Assembly (NCBI GenBank): GCA_017964255.1
Contig: JAGCSI010000034.1
Coordinates: forward strand, 9,992 to 73,991
From: Bacteroidales bacterium
GTDB lineage: Bacteria > Bacteroidota > Bacteroidia > Bacteroidales > WCHB1-69
Length of the DNA: 64,000 nucleotides
Reading direction: 5' to 3'
Shown here: positions 42,125 to 51,272 of the stretch, in pieces
Position numbering within the stretch: the first letter of the stretch is position 1
Layout of the letters: each line of letters begins with the position of its first letter
Program-made: the position numbers and the translations under genes
The notes under the pieces: model-generated
The model's database searches: none
The model's input: only the letters and a program-made list of their open reading frames with translations
Told to the model about the DNA's origin: nothing

Positions 42125-44269
42125 TTAGTTCATCAGAATTTCCAGAATTTTGATGGCACAATCGCTGATAACAGAGCCAGGACCGAAAATGGCGGCGGCA
42201 CCGGCTTTGTACAGGAAGTCATAGTCCTGCGGCGGAATAACGCCACCCACCACCACGATGATGTCCTCGCGGCCTAATTTCTTCAGTTCTTCAATTACTT
42301 GGGGAACCAGAGTCTTGTGACCGGCAGCCAATGAGGAAACGCCCAATACGTGAACGTCGTTCTCAACGGCTTGCTTGGCAGCTTCTTCCGGGGTCTGGAA
42401 CAAAGGTCCCATATCCACGTCGAAACCGATGTCGGCATAACCGGTGGAGACTACCTTGGCGCCACGGTCGTGACCGTCCTGGCCCATTTTGGCAATCATA
42501 ATACGCGGACGACGGCCTTCTTTCCTGGCGAATTCGTCGGCCATCTCACAAGCTTTCTTGAAGCTGGTGTTTTCTTTTTGTTCTGAACTGTACACGCCTG
42601 TAATTAAATTGATTTTTGCTTTGTATCTTCCGAAAACTTTCTCCATAGCGTAGGAGATTTCACCCAAAGAAGCACGCTTTTTGGCTGCATCTACGGACAA
42701 TTCCAGCAGATTGCCCTCGCCAGTCTCGGCGCAGCGGGTGATAGCCTCCAGACAAGCCTGAACCTCTTCGTTGTTACGTTCTGCTCTCAGCTTGGCCAAA
42801 CGTTTAATCTGGGCCTCACGCACAGCGGTGTTGTCCACTTCCAGAGTCTCAATCGGGTCTTCCTTGTCCAAACGATATTTGTTGACACCTACGATGGATT
42901 CGATGCCAGAGTCGATTTTGGCCTGTTTTCTGGCAGCGGCTTCCTCGATTCTCATCTTTGGAATACCGGTTTCAATAGCTTTGGCCATGCCACCCAAGGC
43001 TTCCACTTCTTGGATATGCTTCCAGGCGCGGTGTGCCAGCGCATGGGTGAGGGTTTCCACATAATAGGATCCAGCCCACGGGTCAACCACACGGCAAACG
43101 TTAGTCTCTTCCTGAATGTAAATCTGTGTGTTACGGGCAATACGTGCGGAGAAGTCGGTAGGCAATGCGATAGCTTCGTCCAAAGCGTTGGTGTGCAGTG
43201 ACTGGGTGTGTCCCAGTGCGGCACCCATGGCTTCAATGCAAGTACGTGCCACGTTGTTGAACGGATCTTGCTCGGTGAGGCTCCAGCCTGAGGTTTGCGT
43301 GTGCGTACGCAAAGCCAGTGACTTGGGATTCTTCGGGTTGAAAGTACTTACAATTTTAGCCCACAGCATACGGGCAGCACGCATTTTGGCAATTTCCATG
43401 AAATGGTTCATGCCTGAGCACCAGAAAAATGACAGACGAGGTGCGAAAGCGTCAACATCCAAGCCGGCTTTGACACCGGTACGCAGGTAGTCCCAGCCGT
43501 CGGCCAAGGTGTATGCCATTTCAATGTCAGAAGTGGCACCGGCTTCCTGCATGTGATAGCCTGAAATGGAGATGCTGTTGAATTTCGGCATTTTTTGCGA
43601 GGTGAACTCGAAAATGTCGGCGATAATACGCATTGAGTGTTCAGGCGGGTAAATATAGGTGTTACGTACCATGAATTCCTTCAAAATGTCGTTTTGGATG
43701 GTGCCTTGCAATTCTTCGTATTTGGCACCTTGCTCCAAAGCGGCAACGATGTAGAACGCCAAAATCGGCATAACTGCACCGTTCATGGTCATGGAAACGG
43801 ACATTTTGTTCAAGGGAATCTGGTCGAACAAAACCTTCATATCTTCGACAGAGCAGATACTCACACCGGCCTTACCCACATCACCCATGACACGCTCGTG
43901 GTCGGCGTCGTAGCCACGGTGGGTGGCCAAGTCGAAGGCCACAGACAGACCTTTCTGGCCAGCTGCGATGTTACGGCGATAGAAAGCGTTACTTTCCTCA
44001 GCGGTGGAGAATCCGGCGTATTGACGGATGGTCCATGGGCGCATCACATACATGGTAGAGTAGGGTCCACGGAGGTAAGGGGCAATGCCGGCGGCATAGT
44101 TGAGGTGCTCCATGCCTTCCAAATCCTCTTTCCCATATACTGGCTTGACGGGAATTTGTTCCGTGGTCAGCCAACTGGTGTCGATGTTGTTTTCTTTAGC
44201 CCACTCGGCAAAACTCTGCTCGTTTTGCTTCTTTTGTTTGAAGTTTACTTTACTGAAATCAGGACGCAT
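42125..44269 (-). CDS. methylmalonyl-CoA mutase, large (catalytic) subunit
   Basis: 714 aa. N-terminal substrate-binding barrel and a C-terminal B12-binding domain with the DxHxxG motif ([10 protein letters not shown]). Confidence 0.95.
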
Positions 44270-44420: not shown

Positions 44421-46190
44421 TTATTTGAACATTTCGTCAATTCTGTTGGCGTAGCGCTCATGGACAAAACGTCTCTTTACCTTCAGTGTTGGGGTGAGAA
44501 TCTCGTTTTTGATAGTCCATTCGTCAGGCACCAAGATGAACTTTTTGATTTGCTCGAAATCGCCGAAATTCTTGTTGTAACTTTGTACCTCACGGTTGTA
44601 ACGCTTGATGATGTCGGGGTTGTGTACCATGTCATCGGGAGTGGTGAACTTCATTTCGTGGCGTGCGCACCAGCCTTTCAGGAATTCAAAGTCGGGTGCG
44701 ATGACCGCGCCAGCGAATTTCTGGTTCTCACCTACCACCATCATGTTGGCAATGAACGGAGATTCGCAGAATTTCTCTTCCAAAGCTTCGGGGTTGATAT
44801 ACTTGCCGAAAGAGGTCTTGAACAAGCTCTTGATACGGCCGGTGATGAAAATCTGTCCTTTTTCGTTACGGCGACCCATATCTCCGGTGTGATACCAACC
44901 ATCTTTATCGATGACCTCGGCGGTCAGTTCGGGATCCTTGTAGTAGCCCATCATCACGTTGTGACCGCGGCACAGCAATTCGCCATTGTCGTCGAATTTG
45001 ATTTCCACACCGGGCAGCGGGAAGCCTACAGTGCCCACTTCACGTCCGTCACGGTCGCGGCAGCTCACGGCAATCACAGGAGAGGTCTCGGTGCTGCCAT
45101 AACCCTCGAAAACGGGCATGCCGATGGCGGAGAAGAAGGAGGCCAGATGAGGCTGGATGCTGGCGGCACCGGACACCACGATGTCAAAATTGCCACCTAT
45201 TTTTTCACGTATCTTCTTGTAAACCAATTTGTCGGCAATGCTGTGCTTGAAGTTGTACCAGGCAGAGCGTTCATAATCCTGGATTTTGTATTGTTTGGCT
45301 ACTCCGACAGCCCATACGAATATTTTCTGGGCCATGGGTTTCATGTTGAACTTGGAACTCCAGATTTTGTCGTAGAATTTTTCCAACACACGAGGTACTG
45401 CCGACATCATGGTGGGGTTCACCTCTTTGATGTTCTCGGCAATGGTGCCTAAATTTTGTGCGTAATATACGGACATGCCCAGATATTGGTACAGGAATAC
45501 CAGCATACGTTCGTAAGCGTGGCAGATGGGCAGGAAGCTGAAGGCCTTGTTGGACCATTTGGCGGGAGTCTGGCGCAGGTTGAGCAGCTGATGCACAATG
45601 TTGCGGTGTGACAGCATCACGCCTTTCGGGTGACCGGTGGTACCGGAAGTGTACATAATGGTGCAGCAATCTTCCTCTTTCACGGCATCGCTGCGACGTT
45701 TCAGTTCTTCGGGGTTGGCATTCTCACGGCCCATTTCAATCAACTGGTCCAGATAGGGGAAGCGGTCGCGATTGATGAAAGTATAAACTTTCTCCAGTTT
45801 CGGGGTGTCGCCCATGATGTTGCTGATCTTGTTCATCACTTCCACGCCTTCCACGAAAACGACCTTCATGTCGGAGTGGTTGACGATGTAATGGTAGTCG
45901 CTCTCGCTGATGGTCGGATACACGGGAACTGTGATGGCTCCGATTTGCATGATACCCATGTCCAGCATGTTCCATTCGGGACGGTTGTTGGCAATGATGC
46001 CGACCTTGTCGCCGGGTTCCACTCCCAATTTCATCAGTCCGTAACTGATATTGTCGGTCAATTCTTTATATTGGGCGGGTGAGAAGGTTACCCATTTCTG
46101 ATCTCTTTTACAGCCTAAAGCAATGGTCTGTTTGGGATATTTTTCCTCATAACGATTCAAAATATCAAAAAGTCTGCTGATTTCTTTCAT
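44421..46190 (-). CDS. long-chain-fatty-acid--CoA ligase (AMP-dependent synthetase)
   Basis: 589 aa. AMP-binding signature YTSGTTGHPKGV and later GWYHTGD. Confidence 0.9.
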   Translation of the reverse strand: MKEISRLFDILNRYEEKYPKQTIALGCKRDQKWVTFSPAQYKELTDNISYGLMKLGVEPGDKVGIIANNRPEWNMLDMGIMQIGAITVPVYPTISESDYHYIVNHSDMKVVFVEGVEVMNKISNIMGDTPKLEKVYTFINRDRFPYLDQLIEMGRENANPEELKRRSDAVKEEDCCTIMYTSGTTGHPKGVMLSHRNIVHQLLNLRQTPAKWSNKAFSFLPICHAYERMLVFLYQYLGMSVYYAQNLGTIAENIKEVNPTMMSAVPRVLEKFYDKIWSSKFNMKPMAQKIFVWAVGVAKQYKIQDYERSAWYNFKHSIADKLVYKKIREKIGGNFDIVVSGAASIQPHLASFFSAIGMPVFEGYGSTETSPVIAVSCRDRDGREVGTVGFPLPGVEIKFDDNGELLCRGHNVMMGYYKDPELTAEVIDKDGWYHTGDMGRRNEKGQIFITGRIKSLFKTSFGKYINPEALEEKFCESPFIANMMVVGENQKFAGAVIAPDFEFLKGWCARHEMKFTTPDDMVHNPDIIKRYNREVQSYNKNFGDFEQIKKFILVPDEWTIKNEILTPTLKVKRRFVHERYANRIDEMFK

Positions 46191-46290
46191 GTTTATGATT
46201 TAAGTTGATAAATTTCTTCTGAGTTGAGGCTAATAAAAAATGCAAAAGAATGAAAAAAAATGACAGACTTGTATTTTATGGTGTGTTTGA

Positions 46291-46400
46291 GGGGTAAATG
46301 TGGCGAAATTCCCAAATGAGGGGCGAAATTCCCAAATGAGGGGCGAAATTCAATTGCTGTGGGGTGAAATTTAAAAATACGGTGTGAAATAAATTTTTTG
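46291..46400 (+). promoter_or_regulatory. array of five to six phased 20-bp direct repeats (core G[CT]GAAAT) immediately upstream of the LytTR gene promoter
   Basis: ggcgaaattcccaaatgagg occurs twice perfectly (46302-46341). Degenerate units follow: ggcgaaattcaattgctgtg, gggtgaaatttaaaaatacg, gtgtgaaataaattttttg. The array ends at the -7 box. Confidence 0.7.
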
Positions 46401-46408
46401 TATCTTTG
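46401..46408 (+). promoter_or_regulatory. Bacteroidota -7 box (TAtcTTTG) for the LytTR/methyltransferase unit
   Basis: tatctttg lies 25 nt upstream of the ATG at 46433. It overlaps the TTG used by the ORF track (46406). Confidence 0.55.
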
Positions 46409-46432
46409 CATCCCTTTAAAATATATTGTATA

Positions 46433-47290
46433 ATGAACCAGAAAATACCGGATTACTTGGCGAATTTCCGCATCAACATCCAGATGCTGCTTTTCGTTTT
46501 GGTATTTTCTATCGCATTTGTTTCCATTTATACCCCTTTCGATCTTACCACTTGGTACCAGTCCAATGATGATGTGATGAAAATGGTTTATGCTTCCATC
46601 ACTGTTTTGGGCTGTGTGTCCATTTTGGTGCTGAGTCGCTTGATCTTGTGGGCGGTATGCCGCAGAGAGCGTATTTCCATTTTGCAATATGTGCTGTGGA
46701 TCGCTTCGGAAATCATCTTGATTGTGTTTATTTATTCGGTTTTCAATAAATTTGCGTTGCATGATGACCGTCCTTTCGAGGATATTTTCAAAAGAGCGCT
46801 GATATTTGTGCCGTCTATCCTTTTTATCCCTTATTTGGTGTCCTATTTGTATTATTCTTTGAAAGAAAAGAACAATAAACTGAATAGTTTGTTGGAAAAA
46901 AAGGAGATTTGGGACAATAAACCCTATACCCATGTGGATGAAGTTTTCAATTTCTGCGATGAAAAGGGAAGACTGAAGTTGTCCATCCTGCTGGCAAATG
47001 TATATTACTTGGCGTCAGCAGATAATTATGTTAATATATATTATATGGATAATGGGCATTTGTTCCATTATATGCTTCGCAACAATTTGAAGGATTTGGA
47101 AGAGAAGTTGAGCAACAAAGGCTTCTGTCGTAGCCATCGTTCGTATATCGTTAATATGCAGAAGATTAAGATGATCAGCAAAGAGAAGGAAGGCTTGTTC
47201 ATCAATTTCGATAATGAAGAGGTGGCTCCGCTGCCGGTGTCCAAAACCTACTCTGAACAGATTGTGGACAAATTTGCCACTTCCGAATAG
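46433..47290 (+). CDS. membrane-anchored LytTR-domain DNA-binding protein
   Basis: 285 aa. About four N-terminal TM helices and a C-terminal LytTR-type domain (YLASADNYVNIYY...CRSHRSYIVNMQKI). Confidence 0.75.
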   Translation: MNQKIPDYLANFRINIQMLLFVLVFSIAFVSIYTPFDLTTWYQSNDDVMKMVYASITVLGCVSILVLSRLILWAVCRRERISILQYVLWIASEIILIVFIYSVFNKFALHDDRPFEDIFKRALIFVPSILFIPYLVSYLYYSLKEKNNKLNSLLEKKEIWDNKPYTHVDEVFNFCDEKGRLKLSILLANVYYLASADNYVNIYYMDNGHLFHYMLRNNLKDLEEKLSNKGFCRSHRSYIVNMQKIKMISKEKEGLFINFDNEEVAPLPVSKTYSEQIVDKFATSE

Positions 47291-47307: not shown

Positions 47308-48231
47308 ATGAAAGAAAGGGCTCCCCGCAACAAGACTTTAACCCTGACGGAGGAGGAGAGAAAATCTCTTCAGTCTCGTTTGTTGTCTGCCCATCAGATC
47401 AAGAGCAATACTAACTTGACTAACAAGACGATACATGGTGATGCTTTGTCGTTGTTGTCGCAGCTTCCGGCACAAATGGCCGACTTGATCATCGTGGATC
47501 CACCCTATAATCTGTCAAAGAACTTCAATGGTTTTCAGTTCAAGGCTACTTCCGAATCCCAGTATCTGGAGTACCTCCGCTCATGGTTTCCAAAGTTGTG
47601 CAAGTTGTTGAAACCCAATGGGTCCTTGTATCTTTGTGGTGATTGGAAATCCACTTCAGCCTTGCAACAGGTGATGGAGGAGAATCTGACGGTGATGAAC
47701 CGCATCACCTGGCAGCGAGAGAAGGGCAGAGGAGCTTACAAAAATTGGAAGAACGGCATGGAGGACATCTGGTACGGAGTCATAGATAAGAACAACTATT
47801 ACTTTGACTTAGAATCAGTTAAACAGAAAAGAAGGGTGTTAGCCCCTTATCGTGAGAAAGGTGTGCCGAAAGATTGGGAAGAAGGTGAGGAGGGTAAATT
47901 CCGTCTTACTTGCCCGTCAAATTTCTGGGACGACATTACCGTTCCGTACTGGTCGATGCCGGAAAATACTGATCATCCGACACAAAAGCCCGAGAAGCTT
48001 GTTGCCAAACTGATTCTTGCCTCCTGCCCTCCCGATGGTTTGGTCTTCGATCCGTTCCTCGGTTCCGGTACCACCTCCGTGGTCGCCAAGAAGCTAGGAC
48101 GCCAATACCTCGGCATTGAAATGAATGAGGAATATTGCCTTTGGGCGGAAAAACGTTTGATGCTGGCCGATGAAAATCCACGTATCCAAGGGTATGAAAA
48201 TGGGGTGTTCAAAGAGCGAAATATGCACTGA
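47308..48231 (+). CDS. site-specific DNA methyltransferase, beta class (N6-adenine or N4-cytosine), orphan
   Basis: 307 aa. Motif IV IIVDPPYN precedes motif I FDPFLGSGTT, the beta permutation. It starts 17 nt after the LytTR stop, and no restriction endonuclease is adjacent. Confidence 0.85.
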   Translation: MKERAPRNKTLTLTEEERKSLQSRLLSAHQIKSNTNLTNKTIHGDALSLLSQLPAQMADLIIVDPPYNLSKNFNGFQFKATSESQYLEYLRSWFPKLCKLLKPNGSLYLCGDWKSTSALQQVMEENLTVMNRITWQREKGRGAYKNWKNGMEDIWYGVIDKNNYYFDLESVKQKRRVLAPYREKGVPKDWEEGEEGKFRLTCPSNFWDDITVPYWSMPENTDHPTQKPEKLVAKLILASCPPDGLVFDPFLGSGTTSVVAKKLGRQYLGIEMNEEYCLWAEKRLMLADENPRIQGYENGVFKERNMH

Positions 48232-48533: not shown

Positions 48534-51272
48534 ATGGATAAAGATTTATCACTATTTGACAATTTGAAAATTTCGGAGTCCTTGGAAGAGGTGGATGTCC
48601 AGAAAAAAGACAACCAGCAGGCGCTGATAGAGAGCCGCGCGAATGGTTTGGAGAAAATGCAGTTCGATGACCTGGAAGAGCTGGTCATGGGAAGTGCGCA
48701 AGAGGAAATCAAAGCAGTGGAGGAAGTGGAGAAGGAGCCGATGAAAACGTATAAGAAAGAGGATATTTTCCAAGAGGTGGTGGAATATTTCCATGGCGAC
48801 GAACTGGCAGCAGGCGTGTGGATCGACAAATATGCGCTGAAAAATGATGAAGGTCAGTTGATGGAACGCAATCCTGACGAGATGCACCATCGTATGGCCC
48901 GCGAGTTTGCCCGTATCGAGAAGAAATATGCCAACCCGATGAGCGAGGAGCTGATTTATTCCTTGTTCAAGAATTTCAAATATGTTATTCCTCAGGGAAG
49001 CCCGATGGCCGGTATTGGTAACAATTTTCAGATTTCGTCTTTGTCCAATTGCTTCGTTATTGGTAACGATGCCCGCTCCGACTCTTATGGTGGTATCATG
49101 AAAATGGACGAGGAACAGGTACAACTGATGAAACGTCGTGGTGGTGTGGGTCATGACCTTTCCCATATCCGTCCCACGGGTAGCAAAGTGCAGAACTGTG
49201 CTATTTCCTCTACCGGCGTGGTGCCTTTCATGGAAAGATATTCCAATTCCACCCGTGAGGTGGCCCAGGATGGCCGCCGTGGTGCTTTGATGTTGTCTAT
49301 CTCTATCAAACATCCCGATGCCGAACGTTTCATAGATGCCAAGATGACCGAGGGCCGAATCACCGGTGCCAACGTGTCCGTGCGTATTGACGATGAGTTC
49401 ATGGAATGCGTGAGAACCGGCAAGCCCTACGTGCAACAGTATCCTATCGATTCTCCCAATCCGAAATTCAGACAGGAAATAGATGCTTCCAAGTTGTGGC
49501 AGAAAATCACCCACAATGCCTGGAAGTCCGCAGAACCAGGTGTGTTGTTCTGGGACACCATCCACAGAGAAGCTATTCCCGACTGCTATGCTGATGAAGG
49601 TTTCTTGACGGTTTCTACCAACCCCTGCGGCGAGATTCCCTTGTGCCCATACGACAGTTGCCGTTTGATTGCCATGAACTTGTACAGCTATGTGGACAAT
49701 CCGTTCACGGAACAGGCCAGCTTCAATATGCCGCTGTTCCGTCAGCATGTGCAGTACGCCCAGCGTCTGATGGATGACATCATCGACTTGGAATTGGAGA
49801 AAATCGAGAAGATTATTGACAAAATCAAGAAAGACCCTGAAACGGATGATATCAAACGTGTGGAACTGGAACTGTGGAACAAAATCAAGAAACAATCCTT
49901 GAAGGGTCGTCGTACCGGTTTGGGTATCACCGCCGAAGGCGATATGCTGGCCGCTCTGAATATCCAGTACGGTTCCGACCACGGCAACGCTTTCTCAACC
50001 GAAGTACACAAACAATTGGCTCTGGCCGCTTATCGTTCCTCCGTTACCATGGCACGCGAAAGAGGCGCTTTCCCGGTGTATAGCTGCATCAAAGAAAGCC
50101 GCAATCCGTTCGTGCTGCGTTTGAAAGCCGCCGACGAAAAGCTGTATGAAGACATGATTCGCTACGGTCGTAGAAATATTGCCTTGCTGACTATCGCTCC
50201 TACAGGTAGTGTGAGTATTTGTACGCAAACCACTTCCGGTATCGAGCCCGTCTTCAATGTGGTGTATATGAGAAGAAGAAAAGTGAATCCCAACGATATG
50301 AACCGTCGCAAGACCGTGCGTGATACTGTGGGTGATCTTTTCGAGGAATATATGGTCTTCCATCCTAAATTCATCGACTGGGCCGCTGTCCAGGGCATCA
50401 GCAAGGAAGAACTGGAAGCTATGGATAAAGACGAGATCTTGGCTTTGGTGGAGAAATCTCCTTACTACAAGTCCATGGCTGCTGATACCGATTATATCAA
50501 GAAAGTGGAATTGCAGGGTATGGTGCAGAAATGGGTGGACCACTCCATTTCTGTTACCGTGAATTTGCCTGCCGACACTACTGAGGAAACCGTGGCCGGC
50601 TTGTATGTCAAAGCTTGGGAAGTGGGTTGCAAGGGCATGACCGTTTATCGTGAGGGTTCTCGCGACGGTGTGTTGAATACCATCACCAAAAAAGAAGAGG
50701 AGAAACCTGCCGAACAACCCAAGAATTACAAACGTCCCACCTCTCTGCCAGCAGAAATTGTGAGATTCAAAAACAATTGCGAGGACTGGATTGCTTTTGT
50801 GGGTCTGCGTGACGGTCGTCCGTACGAGATTTTCACCGGTAAGACCGAAAGCGACCGCTTCGTTATTCCGAAATGGGTGGAGTCAGGTTTCATCATCAAG
50901 AATCGCCACGAGGATGGTACAAAGACCTACGATTTCCAATATTATGACAAAGACGGTTATGAAGTGCTGATGAAAGGCTTGTCCCGTACATTCAATCCTG
51001 AATTCTGGAACTATGCCAAGATGATTTCCGCTTTGCTGAGACACGAAATCCCGATGGAAAGCATCATCAACATCATTTCCGGTCTGAATTTCCGCGAGGA
51101 ATCCATCAACTCATGGAAGAATGGTGTGATTCGCGCCCTGAAGAAATTCCTCCGCGATGGTACAAAAGCCAAGGGTGCTGTCTGCCCGAAATGCGGTCAG
51201 GAGAATACCATGGAGTACAAGGAGGGCTGTCTGTGCTGCTCTAACTGCGGCTACTCCAAATGTGGTTCGTAA
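48534..51272 (+). CDS. nrdJ: adenosylcobalamin-dependent (class II) ribonucleotide reductase
   Basis: 912 aa. Active-site block TNPCGEIPL and a C-terminal CxxC...CxxC zinc ribbon (CPKCG...CSNCG). About 70 aa of acidic N-terminal extension. Confidence 0.9.
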   Translation: MDKDLSLFDNLKISESLEEVDVQKKDNQQALIESRANGLEKMQFDDLEELVMGSAQEEIKAVEEVEKEPMKTYKKEDIFQEVVEYFHGDELAAGVWIDKYALKNDEGQLMERNPDEMHHRMAREFARIEKKYANPMSEELIYSLFKNFKYVIPQGSPMAGIGNNFQISSLSNCFVIGNDARSDSYGGIMKMDEEQVQLMKRRGGVGHDLSHIRPTGSKVQNCAISSTGVVPFMERYSNSTREVAQDGRRGALMLSISIKHPDAERFIDAKMTEGRITGANVSVRIDDEFMECVRTGKPYVQQYPIDSPNPKFRQEIDASKLWQKITHNAWKSAEPGVLFWDTIHREAIPDCYADEGFLTVSTNPCGEIPLCPYDSCRLIAMNLYSYVDNPFTEQASFNMPLFRQHVQYAQRLMDDIIDLELEKIEKIIDKIKKDPETDDIKRVELELWNKIKKQSLKGRRTGLGITAEGDMLAALNIQYGSDHGNAFSTEVHKQLALAAYRSSVTMARERGAFPVYSCIKESRNPFVLRLKAADEKLYEDMIRYGRRNIALLTIAPTGSVSICTQTTSGIEPVFNVVYMRRRKVNPNDMNRRKTVRDTVGDLFEEYMVFHPKFIDWAAVQGISKEELEAMDKDEILALVEKSPYYKSMAADTDYIKKVELQGMVQKWVDHSISVTVNLPADTTEETVAGLYVKAWEVGCKGMTVYREGSRDGVLNTITKKEEEKPAEQPKNYKRPTSLPAEIVRFKNNCEDWIAFVGLRDGRPYEIFTGKTESDRFVIPKWVESGFIIKNRHEDGTKTYDFQYYDKDGYEVLMKGLSRTFNPEFWNYAKMISALLRHEIPMESIINIISGLNFREESINSWKNGVIRALKKFLRDGTKAKGAVCPKCGQENTMEYKEGCLCCSNCGYSKCGS

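Follow-up and report, generated by a model that had tools for sequence, protein, structure and literature searches.

Our analysis indicates that a phased array of 20-bp direct repeats (46280-46390) is probably the operator of the adjacent regulator, a one-component protein with four transmembrane (TM) helices and a LytTR domain (4-TM/LytTR), and that this operator would be shared by two divergent promoters. The window, i.e., the whole 64,000-nucleotide stretch of DNA analysed, comes from an uncultured rumen Bacteroidales bacterium. The array lies in the 242-bp intergenic region (46191-46432) between the regulator gene and a divergent gene for a long-chain acyl-CoA synthetase (ACS); its chief target is probably this ACS gene. 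The features are as follows, with distances marked by a plus sign counted from the conserved GCAAAAGAA-type motif, taken as the ACS -7 box.

44421 to 46190, minus strand: long-chain acyl-CoA synthetase (ACS, AMP-binding) gene, with Pfam AMP-binding and AMP-binding_C_3.
46243 to 46250, minus strand: putative -7 box of the ACS promoter, TTCTTTTG on the minus and GCAAAAGAA on the plus strand, with one mismatch to TAnnTTTG.
46280 to 46289, plus strand: unit 0, GGTGTGTTTG, very degenerate, in phase, +37 from the ACS -7 box.
46300 to 46309, plus strand: unit 1, GTGGCGAAAT, +57 from the ACS -7 box, PWM score 12.9.
46320 to 46329, plus strand: unit 2, GGGGCGAAAT, +77, member of the universal core pair, PWM score 24.3.
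46340 to 46349, plus strand: unit 3, GGGGCGAAAT, +97, member of the universal core pair, PWM score 24.8.
46361 to 46370, plus strand: unit 4, GGGGTGAAAT, +118, 40 bp before the LytTR -7 box, PWM score 19.0.
46381 to 46390, plus strand: unit 5, GGTGTGAAAT, +138, starting 20 bp before the LytTR -7 box, PWM score 11.6.
46401 to 46408, plus strand: predicted -7 box of the LytTR promoter, TATCTTTG, fitting TAnnTTTG and invariant in relatives.
46433 to 47290, plus strand: gene of the 285-aa regulator, in which four TM helices are followed by a long linker helix and, at the C-terminus, the LytTR domain.

The centre of the array is formed by two exact tandem copies of GGCGAAATTCCCAAATGAGG (46302-46341); with Tandem Repeats Finder, 2.5 perfect copies of a 20-bp unit were detected at 46302-46351. 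Five GYGAAAT cores, all on the plus strand, start at 46303, 46323, 46343, 46364 and 46384. The whole window holds 25 matches to this core on both strands; 0.017 are expected per 88 nt of one strand, and the Poisson probability of five or more is about 1e-11. The perfect duplication and the five cores of the original prediction are thus borne out, but the exact 20-bp spacing that it claimed is in fact 20/20/21/20, and its weaker upstream unit at the same spacing has to be replaced. The sequence meant, GGGGTAAAT (46291-46299), lies only 10 bp from unit 1, half a period out of phase, is poorly conserved and was rejected as an array unit; the in-phase place is taken by the degenerate unit 0. The latter gives a weak PWM peak at +37 across loci, with G90, T92, T94, T97 and T98 invariant in close relatives, and is the weakest part of the array. 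The direct, not inverted, orientation, the length of about 9-11 bp and the period of about 20-22 bp are those of a LytTR operator.

The spacers that follow units 1 and 2 (46310-46319 and 46330-46339) are the same within a strain and different between strains, each paired spacer being present twice: TCCCAAATGAG in the window, CTCCAAATGAG in locus L010, TTCCAAATGAG in L011 and TCGATTATCT in L015. Such identity within and divergence between strains implies concerted evolution or repeated re-duplication of 20 bp at constant copy number. A further sequence, TTGGCGAATTTCC (46457-46469, plus strand, inside the LytTR ORF), matches unit 1 at 11 of 13 positions 76 nt past unit 5; it is out of phase and varies at synonymous sites in relatives, and was therefore judged to be chance or coding sequence. 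An Rfam scan of 46100-46500 returned chance-level matches only (E ~0.7-0.9), which leaves an RNA element unsupported. A scan for sigma-70 promoters and terminators was uninformative for a Bacteroidota genome.

The protein encoded next to the array is, as predicted, a membrane-anchored LytTR protein. Pfam LytTR (PF04397) matches residues 185-278 (E 3.4e-17), and the Kyte-Doolittle profile contains four hydrophobic spans of TM length (9-39, 48-77, 80-109 and 118-141). In an AlphaFold2 model based on 29 homologues (pLDDT 80), helices at 12-32, 47-78, 83-108 and 115-161 precede a beta-rich domain at 171-269. Foldseek aligned the C-terminal domain with the LytTR-domain chains of AgrA and 3d6w at target-normalised TM-scores of 0.72-0.79, the score against full-length ComE being ~0.37-0.39, and a PDB sequence profile search also found 3d6w (E 1.4e-10). 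There is no receiver (REC) domain, as Pfam finds LytTR alone and residues 1-160 consist of the TM helices; these N-terminal 160 residues have zero Pfam matches. With the TM segments and, at 171-278, the DNA-binding LytTR domain in one polypeptide, the protein is a one-component membrane-tethered regulator, and its full-length family comprises 445 representatives at 50% identity (E <= 1e-30). Residues P35, R69, W89, E93, P133 and Y134 are invariant in the 29 homologues down to 32% identity. The charged and aromatic ones among the invariant residues sit within or at the ends of TM helices and could form a ligand or signal site of the membrane domain.

The array is widely conserved. In eight metagenomic contigs encoding an identical LytTR protein, the number of units is unchanged and C/T changes occur inside GYGAAAT. 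We then compared 80 orthologous loci drawn from species-level genomes. The identity of their LytTR proteins to that of the window ranges from 98% to ~33%, and by eye almost all of the loci carry two to six copies of GGGGYGAAAW 5' of the LytTR gene. Across 78 upstream regions of 220 nt each, hexamer self-matches at a lag of 20 number 334, compared with 6.6 +/- 3.1 in shuffles and 0 in the coding control, and harmonics appear at 40, 41 and 61. This lag analysis is independent of the PWM, which was trained on the sites that it scores. The PWM places unit starts at distances of exactly 20, sometimes 21, locus after locus, and finds phased pairs upstream of 51 of the 80 LytTR genes, but in 0 of the 1380 windows that served as controls within these loci; it gave no pair in the other ~29 loci, mostly the most distant ones, in which the motif has drifted. 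In the alignment of close relatives, the GGGG.GAAAT cores, ATGCAAAAGAA and TATCTTTGCA are invariant, with variable spacers between them. When the 51 loci are anchored on their best pair, the three positions of GGG are occupied at -20 in 47, 42 and 44 loci and at -40 in 41, 39 and 34 loci, each out of 51. From this enrichment one and two periods upstream, the ground plan of the family has four phased units, the distal two being degenerate. The window clade has two units beyond this plan and five good units in all, and L015 has six. The array is therefore unusually extended, as had been noted, relative to canonical pairs of LytTR sites, but not within its own family.

This conservation bears on the possibility that the array is functionless or at least not transcriptional, i.e., a tandem duplication by replication slippage or a set of replication-origin iterons, which we regard as extremely improbable. 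Period, cores and register are kept across about 80 species-level genomes with unalignable flanks and conserved chromosomal synteny, the copy number is fixed among strains, and the spacers vary between cores that are invariant. All this outweighs the two perfect unit copies and the co-variation of the unit 1 and unit 2 spacers between strains, which would fit ongoing duplication or conversion. Like plasmid iterons, the array consists of direct repeats of ~20 bp in phased tandem, an iteron-like form that the original prediction had already recognised together with the lack of a replication gene nearby. Unlike them, it lies on the chromosome in conserved synteny, with its units in register with two predicted -7 boxes, and its flanks contain ACS, LytTR, methyltransferase and ribonucleotide reductase genes and no rep-like ORF. 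A dispersed element unrelated to the promoter, which had been named as one of the findings that would overturn the prediction, was also rejected: GGCGAAATTCCCAAATGAGG has no further copy in the 64-kb window with up to three mismatches allowed, and a phased pair is absent elsewhere in it.

Plasmid iterons do match the search pattern elsewhere. Metagenome contigs were scanned for GGGGYGAAAW-N10/11-GGGGYGAAAW, which gave at least 120 stretches. Among the matches listed, a family LytTR gene lies just downstream in 15-16 stretches, all with an N10 gap, and in 0 of the 55 N11-gap matches. Most of the listed stretches have nothing to do with the array, being iterons 5' of Rep genes, simple tandem repeats or phage DNA, and outside the LytTR and ACS contexts the listed N10 and N11 matches are about equally frequent; a large regulon of consensus pairs is thus unsupported. 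Repeats of 21-22 bp that contain GGGGTGAA occur in L161 (~350-520), before a 421-aa ORF resembling a plasmid replication initiator, and in L181 (~2040-2140), where no initiator gene was identified. We read both as true iterons unrelated to the LytTR arrays.

The genes next to the array point to fatty-acid metabolism. The best NCBIfam matches of the window ACS are FadD11 and long-chain fatty-acid-CoA ligase, both below the curated cut-offs. A divergent ACS orthologue (65-99% identity) stands beside the LytTR gene in ~38 loci and a divergent DUF6051 gene in 35 more distant ones (L039-L088), so that a divergent partner is conserved in 73 of the 80 loci. In the DUF6051 class, four units come directly after a GCAAAnA motif; in most of these loci, 56-58 bp separate the end of the array from the LytTR -7 box. 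The DUF6051 protein (PF19519) has 372-394 aa and is encoded on the minus strand ~200-260 bp upstream of the LytTR gene; its HGLNE and AYSIG motifs appear to resemble the nucleophile elbow of alpha/beta-hydrolases.

Arrays also occur in other settings. In L150, the array and the LytTR gene lack a divergent partner and are followed by an acyl-ACP thioesterase gene, and in L171 and L207 a LytTR-only protein with a motif pair is divergent from fabH-fabF, followed by an electron-transfer-flavoprotein (ETF) gene. Six to seven GGGGTGAA units lie upstream of an ACS orthologue (58% identity) without an adjacent LytTR gene in L179, L197 and L107, the first unit being +36/37 from a perfect TAATTTTG -7 box; their other flank is presumably the 3' end of an nqrF-like gene, as read from the ORF translation. 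In L096, L141, L178 and L203, the gene preceded by an array encodes an AMP-binding enzyme of a second type. The 100-nt region upstream of the LytTR gene of L178 has no array, whereas the convergent AMP-binding gene has one, and LytTR autoregulation is apparently absent in this locus. The LytTR domain is common to four array contexts, and a fatty-acid enzyme gene to nearly all contexts.

The gene downstream of the LytTR gene is not conserved and was ruled out as a conserved operon partner. In the window it encodes an adenine-specific DNA methyltransferase (47308-48231, plus strand; Pfam N6_N4_Mtase, NCBIfam PRK11524-like below the cut-off), which starts 17 nt past the LytTR stop and is thus probably co-transcribed. 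It is confined to L001-L011 and looks like a recent insertion, because in L012-L014 the ribonucleotide reductase gene directly follows the LytTR gene. The locus is flanked by a methylmalonyl-CoA mutase gene (42125-44269, minus strand) and a class II-like ribonucleotide reductase gene (48534-51272, plus strand); this synteny is kept in the closest relatives, and we found no link between it and the array.

The arrangement of the units relative to both promoters speaks for a shared operator. Bacteroidota promoters have the -7 consensus TAnnTTTG. The predicted LytTR -7 box, which the original prediction also placed at 46401, starts 32 nt 5' of the LytTR ATG and is separated from the end of unit 5 (46390) by 10 bp. 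At the putative ACS -7 box, the block ATGCAAAAGAA is invariant in an alignment of eight sequences, and nearly all ACS-linked loci have a CAAAnn[TA]A motif at the matching relative place. Counted from this box, units start at exactly +57, +77 and +97 in ~25 of 30 distinct ACS-linked intergenic regions, and virtually every ACS-linked locus has those at +77 and +97. The two -7 boxes are not at a constant distance from each other, the values being 117, 139-142, 158 (window clade) and 199. In the 117-bp class, it is the +77 and +97 units whose starts precede the LytTR -7 box by 40 and 20 bp; in the window, where this box lies at +158, the same distances are provided by the extra units at +118 and +138. 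The 20-bp distance from unit to LytTR -7 box recurs in L016-L023, L035 and L038. Unit 4 comes after the one 21-bp step of the array and is clade-specific, being found in the window clade and L015 only. We infer that the five units comprise three in the ACS register and two that restored the geometry at the LytTR promoter after the promoters had shifted 41 bp apart; the count of five would follow from these quantised distances, since +57/+77/+97 are kept and the 40/20 geometry is regained. The 139-142 class has not kept the 20/40 geometry at the LytTR promoter, and autoregulation may therefore not be universal.

The original prediction saw in the array an autoregulatory operator. Its LytTR type is supported, as motif and period recur upstream of orthologues in three gene contexts, but a merely autoregulatory role is not. 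A purely autoregulatory operator, with positive feedback on the LytTR promoter alone, as in the LytTR regulatory systems (LRS) of Streptococcus mutans, and with the ACS gene as an unrelated neighbour, is unlikely given that it is the ACS and not the LytTR -7 box to which the units keep the stricter spacing, that the ACS genes without an adjacent LytTR gene also have arrays, that the array of L178 belongs to the AMP-binding gene and that the divergent partner is so widely kept. It would nevertheless account for the distance of exactly 20 bp from the start of unit 5 to the LytTR -7 box, which is shared with the loci named above, and for the array of L150, where the LytTR gene has no divergent partner; moreover, HdrR and BrsR are documented to autoregulate via upstream direct repeats (PMC6193735).

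A different, unlinked regulator, e.g., a global lipid regulator, could also bind the array, in which case the LytTR gene, ACS, DUF6051 and fabH-fabF would be co-members of its regulon. The LytTR protein has been assigned as the binder from sequence, the unit is unlike the classical LytTR consensus, and some arrays stand at loci that lack an adjacent LytTR gene. The LytTR domain, however, is the sole component common to the four array contexts, direct repeats with a 20-21 bp period are typical of LytTR sites (PMC6193735, PMC11347149), and the LytTR-linked metagenome matches, among those listed, all have the N10 and none the N11 gap. We consider an unlinked regulator improbable and the adjacent LytTR protein the likely ligand of the array.

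Known systems share some features with the window locus and differ from it in others. The sites of the LytTR response regulators AgrA, ComE, PlnC/D, BlpR and AlgR are likewise direct repeats of ~9-11 bp, ~20-22 bp apart centre to centre and upstream of promoters, and these proteins share the DNA-binding fold of the window protein (AgrA TM-score ~0.78). In contrast to the AgrA/AlgR class, the window regulator is anchored in the membrane and lacks a receiver domain, and its array has four to six phased units, not one pair, and would serve divergent promoters. The classical LytTR consensus is [TA][AC][CA]GTTN[AG][TG]. It has zero matches on both strands of 46270-46410, but is a weak criterion, because published LRS repeats deviate from it too (PMC6193735).

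Zou et al. (2018) described Bacteroides operons with TM-containing LytTR regulators and predicted 11-bp repeats before TAnnTTTG promoters (PMC6193735). These LRS-like operons and HdrRM/BrsRM resemble the window locus in having a LytTR regulator without a phosphorelay and direct repeats upstream of its own promoter. LRS of the HdrRM type, however, consist of a soluble regulator and a co-transcribed membrane inhibitor, and the locus falls outside this type, as the window regulator itself contains the four TM helices. The Bacteroides operons have a membrane partner gene; the window locus has none, its neighbours being ACS and a DNA methyltransferase. Compared with LRS, the period is 20 and not 22 bp, the units are more numerous and a metabolic gene is the conserved candidate target.

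Closer in architecture is CoxC, a membrane-anchored LytTR regulator with three direct repeats in its operator, a number also found for RcoM (PMC11347149). Both are, like the window regulator, one-component LytTR proteins with an N-terminal sensor (the transmembrane MHYT domain in CoxC, putatively the TM domain in the window protein), and they require more than two direct repeats. The window TM domain differs from that of CoxC in having four helices and neither MHYT motifs nor a Pfam match, and the array has another motif and four to six units; CoxC and RcoM target CO oxidation genes, whereas the candidate target in the window is a fatty-acid gene. Bacteroidota commonly possess transmembrane transcription regulators (PMC10269533). 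With ToxR, TcpP and CadC (PMC10269533), the window regulator shares a membrane-tethered DNA-binding domain and tandem direct repeats near promoters, and a membrane or lipid signal is plausible. Those proteins have a winged-helix domain of OmpR type and a single TM helix, in contrast to the LytTR domain that follows four TM helices here.

We therefore propose the following mechanism for the array as a shared operator. Each 20-bp unit (core GGGGYGAAAW) would bind one LytTR domain, and since the units are spaced by about two helical turns, the bound domains would lie roughly on one face of the DNA, so that the array could take up several membrane-tethered protomers next to one another. The +57/+77/+97 units would act on the ACS promoter. 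The two extra units of the clade, at distances of 40 and 20 bp from the LytTR -7 box, would give the LytTR promoter back the geometry for which compact relatives use the shared units. In this way, fatty-acid activation would come under the control of the regulator and so, in the window clade, would its own synthesis. As to the sign of regulation, we lean slightly towards activation, because the units are upstream of both -7 boxes and a -33 TTTG is recognisable at neither promoter. At the predicted LytTR promoter, however, unit 5 reaches into the -33 region, a position that would fit repression as well as activation of class II type; CoxC is a repressor whose three-repeat operator overlaps the -35 box (PMC11347149).

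The idea of lipid sensing comes solely from the gene neighbourhood. We tentatively suggest that the 4-TM/LytTR family might sense fatty acids or the state of the bilayer from within the membrane, and that it would sit on the array as a tetramer to hexamer and regulate fatty-acid genes of Bacteroidota. Under this still speculative scheme, these genes would include both activation and synthesis (acyl-CoA synthetases, the DUF6051 hydrolase, fabH-fabF and acyl-ACP thioesterase), with the array bridging the divergent promoters. We know of no described Bacteroidota counterpart of the lipid regulators FadR, FabR, FapR and FabT of other phyla. In the searchable literature, no regulator is described for the 4-TM/LytTR family, and no link between LytTR and acyl-CoA synthetase in Bacteroides. 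The array of four to six units, the exact 20-bp ruler between two promoters, the GGGGYGAAAW motif and the link to fatty-acid genes appear to be new.

Our data define a candidate regulator family (445 clusters) and the DNA motif that goes with it, together with an exact promoter geometry and the genes of a candidate regulon. In the evolution of the array, growth would proceed by the addition of whole 20-bp units with the register kept, and such a ruler-like series of sites may be a way for one membrane-tethered factor to serve two promoters.
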